From: Escherichia coli
Lineage (GTDB): Bacteria; Pseudomonadota; Gammaproteobacteria; Enterobacterales; Enterobacteriaceae
Assembly: GCF_001677475.2 (NCBI RefSeq)
Contig: NZ_CP015229.1
Reading direction: 5' to 3' (one strand)
Length of the DNA: 64,000 nt
Shown: one piece after another, positions 10,617 to 23,048 of the stretch
Layout of the letters: the number at the start of each line of letters is the position of its first letter
Numbering within the stretch: the first letter of the stretch is position 1
Notes under the pieces: model-generated
Databases searched by the model: none
What the model was told of the DNA's origin: nothing
What the model saw: only the letters and a program-made list of their open reading frames with translations
Position numbers and translations under genes: made by a program

Positions 10617-10801
10617 ATCTCCTCCTTGTATCTTGACAATTGGTTAAAATAACTATGATTAGATTTGGCAAAGTGTATGTAGTCCGATCCCTCAAGGGAT
10701 TCATAGCCCGTAGCTCAGCGAATGGCGCATACACTGAGCCACTCATCTGAAACCCGAACAGTTGTCAGTACGCCATAACGCATTTGCAAGGATGGGTAAT
10801 C

Positions 10802-11549
<748 letters not shown>

Positions 11550-12214: not shown

Positions 12215-12820
12215 TCAATTCCGGCTACAGCCAAAATTACGCTCACCGGTACCGTTGACTTTGGTATACTCTTTCGCGAGATAGTCAGCACGGTTCAGCA
12301 TATCCCGTAAACCAGCATCATCATCGCGTTCCAGCCACACCACCGGCCTGGACGGAAAATTCGCCAGTGTGGCATAGCATCCGGCATCCACCCCCAGGGC
12401 ACTGCACCACGCCTGTTTAATCATCCCGGCCAGTGACCCCGGATCGCGGTAATCGCCCGCACCACACCAGGTATCACGGTTGACCAGCAGTATCAGGTGA
12501 TAGTGTTTTTTACCTTTGTTCTCCCCGAACTCCCGGGCCCAGACGTAATGCAGCCTTGTGGTATGTACGCGTTTACCTTCACGGCGCTTACGCTTCTGGT
12601 AAGCGTCGATTCGGGCTTTCAGGGCATTGATGAAGCGGGATATTACAGCCGCGTCCGTTGCTGCCGGTACATCCGGGAGACGCAGATCAACCCGCAATGC
12701 CGTCAGACGGGGATGAACATCCAGTGCGTGCAGCACCGTCTCACGGATACGTTGTTGCCAGAAGGGGTTGTATTTGTAGGTCATGGTTAAATCTCCGTAT
12801 GTTTCATACGGAATAGCCAC
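12215..12820 (-). CDS. YagK/YfjJ-like (inovirus Gp2-type) cryptic-prophage protein
   Basis: 201-aa ORF; MTYKYNPFWQQRI... start region and overall composition resemble the YagK/YfjJ family as recalled; likely start at the internal Met (12784). Confidence 0.5.
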   Translation of the reverse strand: MAIPYETYGDLTMTYKYNPFWQQRIRETVLHALDVHPRLTALRVDLRLPDVPAATDAAVISRFINALKARIDAYQKRKRREGKRVHTTRLHYVWAREFGENKGKKHYHLILLVNRDTWCGAGDYRDPGSLAGMIKQAWCSALGVDAGCYATLANFPSRPVVWLERDDDAGLRDMLNRADYLAKEYTKVNGTGERNFGCSRN

Positions 12821-12983
12821 GTCGTAAAAAATGCGCAGAGCCCCTGAGGTGACCTCCGGCAGGACACTGTCTCAGGCCCTCTGTGATAACCCGAACGGTC
12901 GTCTCCGGACTGACGGTTGAATTTTCAGCGTTGTTTTTTTAATGTAAAAAACCGGTTACGGGTAAGGCTGTGAGGAGGGAGTT

Positions 12984-13184
12984 ATGGTGATACGCAAAAA
13001 GAAGTGCAGGGACTGTGGAAACGCGATTACTCATAATACAGTGTGTTGCCCGTATTGTGGTTCTGTCGACCCCTTCGGCTATTACCGGAATACAGACCGT
13101 ATCGTTACCATACTGCTGGCACTGATTATTGTGGTCCTGCTGACTACTGTCAGCGTCAGTGTGTATATACTGTGTAGCTGGTGA
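12984..13184 (+). CDS. Small zinc-ribbon plus single-transmembrane hypothetical protein
   Basis: 66 aa; CRDCGN...CCPYCGS followed by hydrophobic IVTILLALIIVVLLTTVSVSVYIL. Confidence 0.3.
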   Translation: MVIRKKKCRDCGNAITHNTVCCPYCGSVDPFGYYRNTDRIVTILLALIIVVLLTTVSVSVYILCSW

Positions 13185-14240
13185 GATAACGGTTCATGTA
13201 TCCCCTGAGCTGACAGTGTACCGGGTATATTAAGCGTAACCGACAGGTTCTCCTTCATACCATATTAAATTTTTCCAGGTATTGCCGCTGCCTTATTTCG
13301 TCCCATACAGGAAAACTCGTCTGGGTTTCTGACAAATACGTGAAACTCACAGCCCCTCAATATCAACCACACGCTGTAAGCCGGTAATACCTGAAAATCA
13401 GCCTATTACCGCCCACGCCTCCGGTACCATTCCCTTTTGATTTCGAATTCTTTGTTGTCGCTATACCGCGTAACATCACCGATACCACACACCGGCACAG
13501 ATAACACCGGACTTATCGTAGCGCTGCTTCAATATTCAGGTGACATATTTCCAGACGGAAGCCGGCACGCGATCGTAAAATTTGCGGTCAGTTCTGCCAG
13601 CCGGTTGTCAACGGCAGAGTTAAAGGCTTCCAGCTCCGCAAGGGTAAGTTTATAACGCGTGTAGGAATTCACTTTTCCCGCGTCTCCTGACGTATTACGG
13701 GCTGCCACTTACCTGGTGTCCCGCAATACAGCCTTAGTGTTCCGTTATCGGGGATCCAGACGCACCGCAACAACCGGGGAAGTATTTTTGGTTAGAGCAG
13801 TGTCAAGAGGGATTTCTCAGCCCCTCACTCACCGGCTCAGTTTCAGGGCAGGAGCATTAATACGCTCAGTTCATGTCTTATACAGGAATGGGCACAGGGG
13901 GAGCTGGCGTGTCACTGCTGATTTTACGCATCAGCGTTCATGTATCTGCACTCTGATACAGAATGCTTCACAGCGCTCTGTTACCGGAGAGATTTACTAT
14001 CTTAGGTTATTCTGGCAAATCCTTTACGTTACTCTCTGATGACTTCTTATATTCATAATACCAATCAGACAACCTTATCCCATCGGTGATATCAGTCTCC
14101 TGCTCGCCAGGAACGGGCTGACTCACTGTAACCACCTCCGAAAACAACTCTGCAATTATCAGAACGCCTGCTTCTCTCCCTGTCCTCACGAAAACTATCC
14201 CCTCTTTATCGCGCGTGCGTGCGGAAGCATCTTTTCGCAA

Positions 14241-14256
14241 CCCCCCCCCCCCCCCC
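14241..14256. repeat. Homopolymeric C16 tract
   Basis: Direct read: gcaa-cccccccccccccccc-ggga at 14241-14256. Confidence 0.85.
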
Positions 14257-14420
14257 GGGATTCCGCTACGGCTCTGCCATCGCAATCCCCCCGTTTATCT
14301 CCGGACAGCCAGATTCCCGATTATTTTTTACGTTTCTCCCCGGTTGTTATGCCGGTGAAGGTGGCGCGCTGTTTTCATGACCACACCGGCTGGTTTAACA
14401 ACATCCGGAGGAACATTCTC

Positions 14421-14627
14421 ATGGCTACCCCAGTTTCGCTGATGGATGACCAGATGGTCGACATGACGTTTATCACTCAACTGACCGGCTTAACCGATAA
14501 GTGGTTTTACAAACTCATCAAAGATGGGGCCTTTCCTGCCCCCATCAAACTGGGTCGCAGTTCCCGCTGGCTGAAAAGCGAAGTGGAAGCCTGGCTGCAG
14601 GCGCGGATTGCTCAGTCCCGTCCGTAA
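14421..14627 (+). CDS. AlpA-family phage-type transcriptional regulator
   Basis: 68 aa from ATG at 14421 with GGAGG 9 nt upstream; FITQLTGLTDKWFYKLIKDGAFPAPIKLGRSSRWLKSEVEAWL matches the AlpA HTH pattern. Confidence 0.65.
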   Translation: MATPVSLMDDQMVDMTFITQLTGLTDKWFYKLIKDGAFPAPIKLGRSSRWLKSEVEAWLQARIAQSRP

Positions 14628-14720
14628 TTTTTAACCACTAACCCTTCGCCCAAAGCAGACGCAATCTCCGGCCTGCCGGCGGCGCTCTGCTGCCTGTTAT
14701 CCCCCGTGAGGAATATGAAA

Positions 14721-15323
14721 ATGAAACAACAGTATCAGACCCGTTACGAGCTGCTCCATGAAAACTACCAGAAATGGCTGACCGGCTTCACCCGGCACGC
14801 CGTATCATGGGGCGTGTGTCATCCGAATATCTACTATTTCCATAATCTGACGCCCGGGTGGGTGTCATTCAATGGCGAAAAACCGGAGATTGCCATCGTT
14901 CCCCAGAGTCTGCACCGGCTGATTTATGGTCCGGACAAACGGAGCTCCCCGTCTCTGGGTGATGATCTGATAGTGAATTTATGCACCAGCGAACACCTGC
15001 TGGTTCATCATCCGATGCTGGAAGGGATCCTGCTATCTGAATGTGAGCGCCTGAAGCAACATTCTCTGGCAAACAAACTGATCAGCCTCTTCCGTCAGTT
15101 TGGCGGCACGGAGTTACGTCTCAAACTGGTCTGGCTCTGCTGGCTTGATTTAATGACCGGAAACAGCCTTGACGACTGGACGAAAAACCTGAAACACAAA
15201 TCAGAAAAAGATCTGGAGCAATGGATCATTGCACGTCAGGGTCAGAGTGAACCACTGACAAATCTGATGGATCAGTACGTGCTTATGGCATACCGTACAT
15301 CGGTTGATGCCGCTCACAGTTGA
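14721..15323 (+). CDS. Hypothetical protein (about 200 aa), no recognised family
   Basis: Uninterrupted ORF directly downstream of the AlpA-like gene, RBS-like GAGGA upstream; start choice (14706/14715/14721) uncertain. Confidence 0.4.
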   Translation: MKQQYQTRYELLHENYQKWLTGFTRHAVSWGVCHPNIYYFHNLTPGWVSFNGEKPEIAIVPQSLHRLIYGPDKRSSPSLGDDLIVNLCTSEHLLVHHPMLEGILLSECERLKQHSLANKLISLFRQFGGTELRLKLVWLCWLDLMTGNSLDDWTKNLKHKSEKDLEQWIIARQGQSEPLTNLMDQYVLMAYRTSVDAAHS

Positions 15324-16125
15324 TGTCTGAGAACCACAGGGCTGGCAGTTGAAAACCAGCCCTGTGGTAAAATACAGTAATAGCGGCGTACATCAGGCAC
15401 GCCGCTCACTCGTCCACAGATCATATACGTCATTATACTGCGCGATAACGGAGGGCTTCAGCACCCGGTCATTTCTGAGCGGGTATGAATACCATTGATG
15501 ATGCGAAGCAGCCACGGGCAGAAACGTTCTTCACAACCAGGTGCCTCCATCTTCACTGCAGGCTGAATGTGCCGGCTTGTTATCCACCAGATAATGGTAT
15601 GCTCCGGTACATGCATACCCCGGTGACTATAAACGCACTGAATCATAGCCTCCCACCTCAGCAGGAGGCAGTCAGCTTTCAGGCGGAAAAACGTTGCAGT
15701 TAAAGATCGTGAGAATCGCTGTTTCGTTGCATAGCAACCTGAACAGTTGTAGTGAAACATTTTCCTGCATCAGCACATGGTCAGGGGCCGTCTGTATGGC
15801 GTGGAATACTGATGTTTCGGCTGATGGCAAGCCTCATTCTCTGTGGAAAAAGGGGCGCGCATTAGCTTCTCAACCAGAGAGCGTCACAAAGACAAATATT
15901 GCTGAAAATCGCATTCATCGTTCAGACGTGAATGCCCGGAGACAAAAGCCGCTGTCCGTACAGCCCCCCTCTGACCTGAACAAAAAGCATACACACAACA
16001 GGCTCACCTGCCCCCGAAAAACCATAACTTCAGCAATACCAGTGACACCAGCACGTTACCTCAGTGCCACATCTTTAGACCGCGATCAATCTGAAATGTG
16101 ACTATCGGGGCAATATCCCTGCTTT

Positions 16126-19988: not shown

Positions 19989-20201
19989 ATAGTGGTTAAT
20001 GGCCTGCGAAAAGGCAGCTGAATCTCTTCATCATGCAGAACGGAATTGCACACAACGGACTGATACTTCTCTGGCGGATGAGAGAGGGGAAGCATTTATG
20101 TCCGGGAAAAACCACTTTATCTGACCATGCTGTTTTGTACCTGCCGGTATCCACATTTGTGGGTACCGGCTTTTTTATTCACCCTCTGTAAGGAAAAGCT
20201 G

Positions 20202-23048
20202 ATGAAACGACATCTGAACACCAGCTACAGGCTGGTATGGAATCACATTACAGGCACCCTGGTGGTGGCTTCCGAACTGGCACGCTCACGGGGAAAAGGC
20301 GCCGGTGTGGCGGTTGCTCTGTCTCTTGCTGCTGTCACGTCAGTCCCGGCACTGGCTGCTGACACGGTTGTACAGGCGGGAGAAACCGTGAACGGCGGAA
20401 CACTGACAAATCATGACAACCAGATTGTCCTCGGTACGGCCAACGGAATGACCATCAGTACCGGTCTGGAGTATGGGCCGGATAACGAGGCCAATACCGG
20501 CGGGCAATGGATACAAAATGGCGGTATCGCCAACAACACTACTGTCACCGGTGGTGGTCTTCAGAGAGTGAATGCCGGAGGAAGCGTTTCAGACACGGTT
20601 ATCAGTGCCGGAGGCGGACAGAGCCTTCAGGGGCAGGCAGTGAACACCACTCTGAACGGCGGTGAGCAGTGGGTACATGAAGGCGGGATTGCAACGGGTA
20701 CCGTCATTAATGAGAAGGGCTGGCAGGCCGTCAAATCCGGCGCAATGGCAACCGACACGGTTGTGAATACCGGCGCGGAAGGGGGACCGGATGCAGAAAA
20801 TGGTGATACCGGGCAGTTTGTTCGCGGAAATGCCGTACGTACCACCATCAATAAAAATGGTCGTCAGATTGTGGCTGCTGAAGGAACGGCAAATACCACT
20901 GTGGTTTATGCCGGCGGCGACCAGACTGTACATGGTCACGCACTGGATACCACGCTGAATGGGGGGTACCTGTATGTGCACAACGGCGGTACGGCGTCTG
21001 GCACTGTTGTAAACAGTGACGGCTGGCAGATTATCAAGGAAGGTGGTCTGGCGGATTTCACCACCGTTAACCAGAAAGGCAAACTGCAGGTGAACGCCGG
21101 TGGTACAGCCACGAATGTCACCCTGACGCAGGGAGGCGCACTGGTCACCAGTACGGCGGCAACCGTCACCGGCAGCAACCGTCTGGGCAATTTCACTGTG
21201 GAAAACGGTAATGCTGACGGTGTTGTTCTGGAGTCCGGTGGTCGCCTGGATGTACTGGAGGGCCATTCAGCGCAGAAAACATTGGTGGATGACGGCGCTA
21301 TCCTGGCAGTGTCTGCCGGTGGTAAGGCAACAGATGTCACCATGACATCCGGTGGTGCCCTGATTGCAGACAGTGGTGCCACTGTTGAGGGGACCAATGC
21401 CAGCGGTAAGTTCAGTATTGATGGCATATCCGGTCAGGCCAGCGGCCTGCTGCTGGAAAATGGCGGCAGCTTTACGGTTAATGCCGGGGGACAGGCTGGC
21501 AACACCACTGTCGGACATCGTGGAACACTGACGCTGGCTGCCGGGGGAAGTCTGAGTGGAAGAACACAGCTCAGTAAAGGCGCCAGTATGGTACTGAATG
21601 GTGATGTGGTCAGTACCGGCGATATTGTTAACGCAGGAGAGATTCACTTTGATAATCAGACGACACAGGATGCCGTACTGAGCCGTGCTGTTGCAAAAGG
21701 CGACTCCCCGGTAACGTTCCATAAACTGACCACCAGTAACCTCACCGGTCAGGGTGGCACCATCAATATGCGTGTTCGCCTTGATGGCAGCAATGCCTCT
21801 GACCAGCTGGTGATTAATGGTGGTCAGGCAACCGGCAAAACCTGGCTTGCGTTTACAAATGTCGGAAACAGTAACCTCGGGGTGGCAACCTCCGGACAGG
21901 GTATCCGGGTTGTGGATGCACAGAATGGTGCCACCACAGAAGAAGGTGCGTTTGCCCTGAGTCGCCCGCTTCAGGCCGGCGCCTTTAACTACACCCTGAA
22001 CCGTGACAGCGATGAAGACTGGTACCTGCGCAGTGAAAATGCTTATCGTGCTGAAGTCCCCCTGTATGCCTCCATGCTGACACAGGCAATGGACTATGAC
22101 CGGATTCTGGCAGGCTCCCGCAGCCATCAGACTGGTGTAAGCGGTGAAAATAACAGCGTCCGTCTCAGCATTCAGGGCGGTCATCTCTGTCACGATAACA
22201 ACGGCGGTATTGCCCGTGGAGCCACGCCGGAAAGCAGCGGCAGCTATGGCTTCGTCCGTCTGGAGGGTGACCTGCTCAGAACAGAGGTTGCCGGTATGTC
22301 TCTGACGACAGGGGTGTATGGTGCTGCAGGCCATTCTTCCGTTGATGTTAAGGATGATGACGGCTCCCGTGCCGGCACGGTCCGGGATGATGCCGACAGT
22401 CTGGGCGGATACCTGAATCTGGTACACACGTCCTCCGGCCTGTGGGCTGACATTGTGGCACAGGGAACCCGCCACAGCATGAAAGCGTCATCGGACAATA
22501 ACGACTTCCGCGCCCGGGGCTGGGGCTGGCTGGGCTCACTGGAAACTGGTCTGCCCTTCAGTATCACTGACAACCTGATGCTGGAGCCACAACTGCAGTA
22601 CACCTGGCAGGGGCTCTCCCTGGATGACGGCCAGGATAACGCCGGTTATGTGAAGTTCGGGCATGGCAGTGCACAACATGTGCGTGCCGGCTTCCGTCTG
22701 GGCAGCCACAACGATATGACCTTTGGCGAAGGCACCTCATCCCGTGACACTCTGCGCGACAGTGCAAAACACCGTGTGAGTGAACTGCCGGTGAACTGGT
22801 GGGTACAGCCTTCTGTTATCCGCACTTTCAGCTCCCGGGGTGACATGAGCATGGGTACAGCCGCAGCCGGCAGTAACATGACGTTCTCACCCTCACAGAA
22901 TGGCACATCACTGGACCTGCAGGCCGGACTGGAAGCCCGTGTCCGGGAAAATATCACCCTGGGCGTTCAGGCCGGTTATGCCCACAGTGTCAGCGGCAAC
23001 AGCGCTGAAGGCTATAACGGTCAGGCCACGCTGAATGTGACCTTCTGA
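20202..23048 (+). CDS. flu: Antigen 43 self-associating autotransporter
   Basis: MKRHLNTSYRLVWNHITGTLVVASELARSRGKGAGVAVALSLAAVTSVPALAADTVV N-terminus, repetitive beta-helical passenger, C-terminal beta-barrel ending ...GYNGQATLNVTF; 948 aa from the ATG at 20202. Confidence 0.9.
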   Translation: MKRHLNTSYRLVWNHITGTLVVASELARSRGKGAGVAVALSLAAVTSVPALAADTVVQAGETVNGGTLTNHDNQIVLGTANGMTISTGLEYGPDNEANTGGQWIQNGGIANNTTVTGGGLQRVNAGGSVSDTVISAGGGQSLQGQAVNTTLNGGEQWVHEGGIATGTVINEKGWQAVKSGAMATDTVVNTGAEGGPDAENGDTGQFVRGNAVRTTINKNGRQIVAAEGTANTTVVYAGGDQTVHGHALDTTLNGGYLYVHNGGTASGTVVNSDGWQIIKEGGLADFTTVNQKGKLQVNAGGTATNVTLTQGGALVTSTAATVTGSNRLGNFTVENGNADGVVLESGGRLDVLEGHSAQKTLVDDGAILAVSAGGKATDVTMTSGGALIADSGATVEGTNASGKFSIDGISGQASGLLLENGGSFTVNAGGQAGNTTVGHRGTLTLAAGGSLSGRTQLSKGASMVLNGDVVSTGDIVNAGEIHFDNQTTQDAVLSRAVAKGDSPVTFHKLTTSNLTGQGGTINMRVRLDGSNASDQLVINGGQATGKTWLAFTNVGNSNLGVATSGQGIRVVDAQNGATTEEGAFALSRPLQAGAFNYTLNRDSDEDWYLRSENAYRAEVPLYASMLTQAMDYDRILAGSRSHQTGVSGENNSVRLSIQGGHLCHDNNGGIARGATPESSGSYGFVRLEGDLLRTEVAGMSLTTGVYGAAGHSSVDVKDDDGSRAGTVRDDADSLGGYLNLVHTSSGLWADIVAQGTRHSMKASSDNNDFRARGWGWLGSLETGLPFSITDNLMLEPQLQYTWQGLSLDDGQDNAGYVKFGHGSAQHVRAGFRLGSHNDMTFGEGTSSRDTLRDSAKHRVSELPVNWWVQPSVIRTFSSRGDMSMGTAAAGSNMTFSPSQNGTSLDLQAGLEARVRENITLGVQAGYAHSVSGNSAEGYNGQATLNVTF

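Follow-up and report, generated by a model that had tools for sequence, protein, structure and literature searches.

A length-variable poly(C) tract upstream of an AlpA-family regulator gene in an Escherichia genomic island

The tract and its genomic neighbourhood

The window analysed here (the whole stretch of 64,000 nucleotides, or 64 kb) contains an uninterrupted run of 16 cytosines that exactly fills positions 14241-14256 of the plus strand (G16 on the minus strand), as the original prediction had it, between ...TTTTCGCAA on the left and GGGATTCC... on the right (in a longer reading, ...GCATCTTTTCGCAA and GGGATTCCGCTACGG...). The gap between the tract and the ATG of the alpA-like gene is 164 nt, in accord with the earlier estimate of about 165 bp. 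The tract is the only homopolymer of more than 9 bases in the 64 kb. Runs of C of lengths 1 to 7 occur 9499, 2684, 486, 130, 33, 4 and 1 times, respectively, and are followed by the single run of 16. The next longest G/C run measures 7 bases in the window; across 309 kb of fetched Escherichia sequence, the maximum is 8, so that the earlier assessment of this length as very unusual is borne out. By our own arithmetic, with C at 26.7%, about 1e-4 or fewer such runs are expected by chance. Thus, the C16 run is far beyond both chance and the local norm and, because the examined Escherichia DNA has no comparable run elsewhere (maximum 8), the site is an outlier for the genus.

The tract is located within a 712-bp divergent intergenic region that extends from the start of an hha-like ORF at 13708 to the start of the alpA-like gene at 14421 (Table 1). 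The RefSeq homologues of the alpA-like gene are annotated as helix-turn-helix or AlpA-family regulators, and those of the Hha-family ORF as Hha/YmoA or hha, some of the latter being intact and others pseudogenes. The description of 13200-14350 as ORF-poor holds in part only, as the minus strand carries the 59-aa Hha-family ORF. Those mechanical ORFs that run across the tract lack conservation. In the region of this ORF (13400-13700), E. coli M172-1 and E. coli SMS-3-5 (loci L001 and L045 below) have unrelated sequence.

To the left of the tract, the island encodes transposases of the IS21, IS256-type (Mutator-family) and IS110 families, two DUF7828/zinc-ribbon proteins, a YagK/YfjJ-family protein and a 66-aa protein, in addition to the Hha-family ORF; the right side comprises the alpA-like gene, genes for proteins of 205 aa and 388 aa, a YeeP-like GTPase and an Ag43-type autotransporter (20127-23048). 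The host island is a member of the CP4-44-type (flu/yeeR) family that carries hha2/hha3. According to the passages of PMC6480617 drawn on here, the flu-yeeR island family is duplicated in pathogenic E. coli, and hns and hha mutations in EAEC 042 relieve its repression, so that expression of the island genes is regulated; the term alpA is absent from that source, and a repeat is not mentioned in these passages. An N-terminal fragment of an IS110-family transposase (PF01548) lies at 10784-11281, between the two DUF7828/zinc-ribbon genes; given that these two genes are adjacent in L001 and L045, the island of the window carries extra IS debris. For the core genes glcB, glcA and glcG (48600-52900), the best identity found among 4,555 complete E. 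coli genomes is no higher than 98.1%. The strain of the window appears to represent a divergent Escherichia lineage that bears an E. coli-type island and tract allele. The upstream region of the CP4-57 alpA gene of K-12 is not orthologous to the one analysed here (in MG1655, alpA is 43 bp from yfjH and the upstream sequence is different), and this gene was therefore dropped as a promoter guide.

Across seven paralogues, the invariant columns of the intergenic region cluster at 14050-14090, 14150-14170 and, above all, 14293-14420, and the tract occupies the least conserved patch (50% invariant) between conserved blocks. The block next to alpA probably holds the promoter and the 5' UTR of this gene, and a promoter role can be envisaged for the block at 14050-14090. 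The alternating CGCGCGTGCGTGCG run is kept in the paralogous islands, being 6 bp shorter in one of them (L014); it looks like a second small slippage site and may form Z-DNA. The motif YCGCAAY, the local enrichment of which was spotted post hoc, has four plus-strand copies within 566 bp (13721, 13765, 14235 and 14280), compared with 36 copies on both strands of the 64 kb, and the last two of the four belong to the TCGCAAYCCCCCC direct repeat and are 45 bp apart. These copies could be sites for a regulator. Another candidate for a repeated motif, CGCAACNNCCNCCC, is not enriched.

Table 1. Features of the locus in the window and alleles read at the tract site (L numbers denote individual loci)
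Feature	Position in the window, or source of allele	Strand	Basis and remarks
AlpA-family HTH regulator gene, 68 aa	14421..14627	+	Pfam PF05930, 37 bits against a cut-off of 21, residues 11-59
Hha/YmoA-family ORF, 59 aa, GTG start	13529..13708	-	Pfam PF05321, 28.6 bits
Poly(C) microsatellite, C16	14241..14256	+	Sequence; length alleles at the same site elsewhere
Near-invariant block abutting the alpA ATG	14293..14420	+	85-100% invariant columns, 7 paralogues
Second conserved block	14050..14090		80-95% invariant; minus-strand promoter-like hexamers including TGgTATTAT
C-rich, G-poor stretch including the tract	14000..14340	+	C/G ratio 1.7-3.1 in 78-nt windows
Direct repeat TCGCAA(C/T)CCCCCC	14235..14292	+	Copies at 14235-14247 and 14280-14292; the second carries a C6 run
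Alternating purine-pyrimidine run CGCGCGTGCGTGCG	14210..14223		17 bp left of the tract
Mechanical ORF, 92 aa, tract read as poly-Gly	14007..14285	-	Probably not a gene
Predicted RNA hairpin	14332..14415	+	-34.5 kcal/mol, z = -2.2; outer stem GUUUCUCC (14332-14339) pairs with the alpA Shine-Dalgarno region GGAGGAAC
Non-repetitive allele AACCACCC	L009, L011-14 (divergent paralogous islands); 9 metagenome contigs		Sequence read
C6 allele AACCCCCC	L010; 10 metagenome contigs		Sequence read
C7 alleles	L002, L007, L008, L038, L042		Sequence read
Interrupted allele C6TCC, ACCCCCCTCC / CACCCCCCTCC	L006 (as CAC6TCC); 4 metagenome contigs		Sequence read
Intermediate alleles	A+C9 in L034; C10 in L027		Sequence read
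Long pure-C alleles	C12 L005; C14 L004; C15 L046; C16 window and L001; C18 L047; C27 L048
CA-prefixed long alleles	CA+C14 E. coli SMS-3-5 (L045); CA+C15 L003; CA+C20 L049

Length alleles at the site in other genomes

A search of 5,426 complete E. coli genomes with a 196-bp query centred on the tract identifies the site in 3,307 of them (3,309 records, 5,989 places), with at least 99% identity to the C16 query in 199 records and without any 100% match to the tract region among these genomes. Alleles, which follow a fixed TTTTCGCAAC, were read in 22 fetched genome loci and 27 short-read metagenome contigs (Table 1). Most genomes have the non-repetitive or the C6-C7 form, and AACCACCC is taken to be the ancestral one; in the class of 95-99% identity, the interrupted form ACCCCCCTCC is the commonest. 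Two scans of the GTDB species representatives (a single genome for each species), one with the flanks and one with an invariant 35-mer as query, give 0 matches each.

Nine long alleles were read directly, including that of SMS-3-5. A synthetic C26 query, which ranks the longest alleles first, provides a broader view: in the best 60 records, the numbers of bases between the fixed flanks are 27 (1 record), 22 (1), 21 (2), 20 (1), 19 (5), 18 (6), 17 (10), 16 (28) and 15 (6). In a systematic sample of 60 records (every ~55th), the tract has at least 12 bases in 3, so that long tracts (12 or more Cs) are present in about 5% of the site-bearing genomes. The observed lengths (12, 14-22 and 27) display no evident preferred phase, periodicity or clustering into ON and OFF classes. 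The islands with long tracts occupy two or more chromosomal contexts, and the flanks of these tracts fall into two haplotypes that differ by about 2%, those of the window and L001.

This distribution bears directly on the suggestion, made in the original prediction, that the run of 16 could be a sequencing or assembly artefact of the source record. Most platforms do indeed tend to misread long G/C homopolymers, the figure of exactly 16 for the window rests on the assembly, and the 27 short-read metagenome contigs contain no long allele. However, tracts of 15-27 bases recur at the same site in well over 60 independent complete genomes; six assemblies match the C16 query over the 196 bp at equal length with a single mismatch, and C16 was also read in M172-1; SMS-3-5, a 2008 genome that we take to have been Sanger-sequenced, bears CA+C14; and the intermediate alleles C9 and C10 exist. 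Given the recurrence of long tracts in independent assemblies, we reject the explanation by artefact, which is extremely improbable.

Comparison of the flanks shows how rapidly the site evolves. There are 0 SNPs across the 520+520 bp of flanking sequence among L001 (C16), L045 (CA+C14), L003 (CA+C15) and L006 (CAC6TCC), so that lengths of 11, 16, 16 and 17 bases coexist on identical 1,040-bp flanks. M172-1 and SMS-3-5 have a common island context and differ at the site by a single A-to-C change that fuses C+A+C14 into C16. Two more alleles, C14 in L004 and C12 in L005, are separated from this group by 2 SNPs in the flanks. The flanks of the window itself show 22 differences from the L001 group in 1,040 bp (~2%), most of them more than 190 bp from the tract. 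The neighbouring C6 run in the second copy of the direct repeat (given as 14281-14286) varies in one read allele only, a C7 in a metagenome contig (L032). Different tract lengths on SNP-free flanks imply that the tract mutates far faster than its surroundings, and the site changes both by length shifts and by loss of interrupting bases. Within five pairs of near-identical isolates, tract length is identical, which indicates that the consensus length does not change on very short timescales. Long-read assemblies may miscount homopolymers by 1-2 bases, so fine-scale differences are soft evidence. Nevertheless, the tract is almost certainly real and hypermutable; the C6 to C27 alleles at one site, some of them on SNP-free flanks, agree with the original expectation of a slippage-prone sequence.

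A different possibility is that the tract is a structural landmark, either a recombination junction, as also proposed initially, or mainly a target for IS110-family insertion. An IS110-family element occupies this very position in about 5% of the sampled genomes. NZ_CP061206.1 (4020200-4022600; L044, and L015 at 1-706) has an insertion of ISEc20, a member of the IS110 family, precisely at the tract site, with the junctions ...TTTTCGCA|CCCCCGTTAC... and ...AATAGGGGCA|CCCCCCGGGATTCC and CACCCCC at both, so the C run may form part of the ISEc20 target. In addition, 3 of the 60 systematically sampled genomes (H127-129, ~5%) match from the tract rightwards only, and mosaics of paralogues (L009 and L010) switch type near the site. 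The IS-bearing allele, however, has a short C6 run, which means that insertion does not need a long tract, and growth of the tract to 27 bases is left unexplained. A recombination breakpoint at the tract is not seen in comparisons with L001 or L045: both flanks of the window are of one haplotype, and 13900-14400 is nearly identical to L001 on both sides of the tract, with 3 differences only, contrary to the proposed junction. Altogether, a role as a landmark of either kind is highly improbable.

Coding, promoter and RNA features around the tract

None of the ORFs that cross the tract has a Pfam match. The minus-strand 92-aa ORF was rejected as a gene, given that its frame is broken in L010-L014 and that it accumulates many non-synonymous differences. 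In some genomes only, PGAP/RefSeq places a 'hypothetical protein' across the tract (e.g., at 458-724 of L009, and in H140 and H142); because the tract-crossing ORF is not conserved, this looks like a spurious call that varies with tract length and allele. Also rejected were plus-strand uORFs in which the tract would encode poly-proline (open in some alleles, interrupted by stops in L012-L014 and, by eye, lacking a Shine-Dalgarno sequence) and an N-terminally extended AlpA read in frame through the tract (not conserved and closed by stops in L012-L014). All three downstream frames end in or just before the predicted hairpin or join the alpA frame, so that the choice of frame is not obviously relevant.

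A consensus scan detects no sigma-70 site in 13600-14750, and a relaxed consensus scan detects no -35/-10 pair bracketing the tract, the latter yielding weak plus-strand promoter-like sites at 14023-14053 and 13857-13884. A terminator scan gives two weak terminator-like sites, no more than in shuffled controls, and there is no Rfam match in 12800-15400 at E up to 1. With regard to the features that characterize contingency loci, the site combines a homopolymer of at least about 8 bases (C16 here, up to C27 elsewhere) with length polymorphism among close relatives (11, 16, 16 and 17 on SNP-free flanks); it lies neither within a real, conserved ORF nor, as far as consensus scanning alone can tell, inside a core promoter.

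The hairpin predicted just upstream of alpA may control translation of this gene. A common variant, GCCAGT, breaks one inner pair of the predicted structure, and the alignment is without covariation. Should this structure exist, the 5' end of the alpA mRNA would lie no further downstream than ~14332, which would place the tract about 75-90 bp upstream of the probable transcript start. RNA folds predict no pairing of the tract at any of the lengths examined (paired probability 0.03-0.04). An interaction between the tract and the alpA ribosome-binding site was discarded as a candidate, because the tract remains unpaired and the Shine-Dalgarno sequence is equally likely to be paired with any tract length from C0 to C20 in the model.

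Probable slippage, possible regulation and comparison with known systems

The observations are best compatible with a slippage microsatellite that originated in point mutations and serves little or no programmed function, an explanation that we consider probable. The divergent paralogous islands (L009, L011-14) and 9 metagenome contigs have a non-repetitive sequence, CAACAACCACCC, at the site, and single A-to-C changes or loss of an A separate the alleles, yielding C6 or C7. Such point changes would have turned CAACAACCACCC into C6/C7; past about 8 bases, slipped-strand mispairing at replication would drive a random walk in length, and the C16 of the window would be one draw from this walk. 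The relatives thus provide the non-repetitive proto-sequence expected of a neutral microsatellite, together with a graded series from C6 to C27, a CA-prefixed series and the interrupted form CACCCCCCTCC. At most, the tract would bring the upstream conserved blocks nearer to, or farther from, the block next to alpA. Given that the tract lies outside any conserved ORF and any recognisable -35/-10 pair, we infer that it most likely arose as a by-product of mutation and that any programmed regulatory role is slight or absent. Counting against the absence of a role is the position of the tract: a long divergent regulatory region beside a regulator gene is a place where a spacing-sensitive element would act. 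Furthermore, selection could maintain the long tracts, in view of the persistence of tracts of 12-27 bases in about 5% of the site-bearing genomes and the absence of other long G/C runs. A length-dependent effect on the expression of alpA or the hha-like gene is accordingly a possible, if doubtful, prospect.

One form of such an effect would be a promoter-upstream rheostat or contingency switch, in which tract length sets the distance and the helical phase between upstream elements (the blocks at 14050-14090 and 14150-14170, the alternating CG run and the first TCGCAAC motif) and the alpA-proximal block. Through slippage, subpopulations would arise that differ in the expression of the AlpA-family regulator and hence of the H-NS/Hha-silenced island; the effect could equally be exerted on the divergent hha-like gene. 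The hypermutable lengths, the location between conserved blocks of a 712-bp divergent regulatory region, and the regulated expression of this island family in EAEC 042 (in the cited passages of PMC6480617) are consistent with such a device. The tract is also in the length class of the Bordetella pertussis Pfim3 poly(C) (PMC10172299), and upstream SSR rheostats are known, e.g., the Helicobacter pylori sabA T-tract (in the part of PMC4081817 drawn on here). Against it stand the failure to find a -35/-10 pair bracketing the tract, the spread of lengths without a preferred phase or ON/OFF clustering, and the non-repetitive or C6-C7 form of most genomes, which implies that the island works without a long tract; the equal lengths in the five pairs of near-identical isolates argue, if weakly, against very fast switching at the consensus level. 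On this evidence, a rheostat is unlikely, and the more specific proposition that repeat slippage sets the level of the AlpA-family regulator and, thereby, the activity (transcription or excision) of the H-NS/Hha-silenced Ag43 island is distinctly unlikely.

The tract might also act in RNA. Poly(C) is the classic strong Rho activator, and in E. coli this factor silences DNA acquired by horizontal transfer. A plus-strand transcript started upstream (e.g., at ~14060 or 13890) would carry the tract in a C-rich, G-poor leader of about 340 nt, where the unpaired poly(C) would be a Rho loading site; a longer tract would cause more premature termination and tighter silencing of alpA and the downstream island. 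The base composition of 14000-14340 (Table 1) and the predicted lack of pairing of the tract fit this scheme, in that the region, as a description of sequence, presents the unstructured C-rich, G-poor RNA of ~70-80 nt or more that is typical of a rut region, and the two weak plus-strand promoter-like sites are candidates for its origin. However, the upstream-started transcript is putative, the candidate promoters are weak (8-9/12 matches and unfavourable spacers) and lack conservation in the -35 region; moreover, the region is C-rich even without the tract, so that extra Cs may add little. We regard this scenario as improbable.

Under the favoured explanation, a slippage microsatellite, one site displays the origin, growth and interruption of a repeat, and if the tract is without effect on expression, the finding is a mutational curiosity only. 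There are also practical consequences: tract length alters automated gene calls, with a 'hypothetical protein' appearing or disappearing, and the tract is a likely source of noise in assembly and variant calling. If the switch were real, clonal populations would be mixed for the state of the island, by a mechanism that is not established in E. coli and is different from its known ones. The site adjoins the regulator gene of a widely duplicated, pathogen-associated island and offers a ready natural test of the regulatory use of repeat slippage in E. coli.

The literature on alpA, homopolymeric or poly-C tracts and genomic islands yielded no published description of the site. A polymorphic homopolymer as such is a well-known kind of object, and all stages of the neutral microsatellite life cycle are represented here at one site: birth from AACCACCC to C6/C7, growth from C9 to C27, and interruption as CACCCCCCTCC. 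The case departs from the usual one in that the examined Escherichia DNA contains no other run of such length, and it is for E. coli, a species with hardly any long G/C homopolymers in its genome, that the site is notable. Phase variation in E. coli is known from the fim invertible switch and from the Dam/Lrp and Dam/OxyR switches at pap and agn43, Ag43 being a classic phase-variable gene. These systems, with which the present island has in common an Ag43-type autotransporter, use site-specific inversion or DNA methylation, not repeat slippage, and in a 2025 review of phase variation the E. coli examples are confined to inversion and methylation (PMC11868660).

Among repeat-based systems of other bacteria, the TAAA repeats of Neisseria meningitidis nadA are an SSR rheostat located upstream of the promoter. 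The sabA T-tract of H. pylori (PMC4081817) likewise resembles the present tract in being a repeat upstream of the core promoter that would act through spacing or DNA shape, not through the reading frame. Length-dependent expression has been measured for sabA and nadA, whereas the promoter in the present case is a putative one. Similarly to B. pertussis fim2/fim3, where a poly(C) of about 11-16 upstream of a gene is varied by slippage, with several lengths among isolates, the tract described here is a run of C upstream of a gene with multiple length alleles. In Pfim3, lengths range from 11C to 16C, and Fim3 production peaks at 14C; the run is part of the core promoter, where it separates the BvgA site from the -10 element, and gain or loss of one C switches expression (PMC10172299). 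Unlike Pfim3, the present run has no flanking promoter hexamers, and the downstream gene encodes a small regulator, not a fimbrial subunit. Pfim3 is the nearest model in length and base, without its core-promoter position being matched here, and the upstream route through spacing or DNA shape is the only way in which the present tract could act on transcription initiation.
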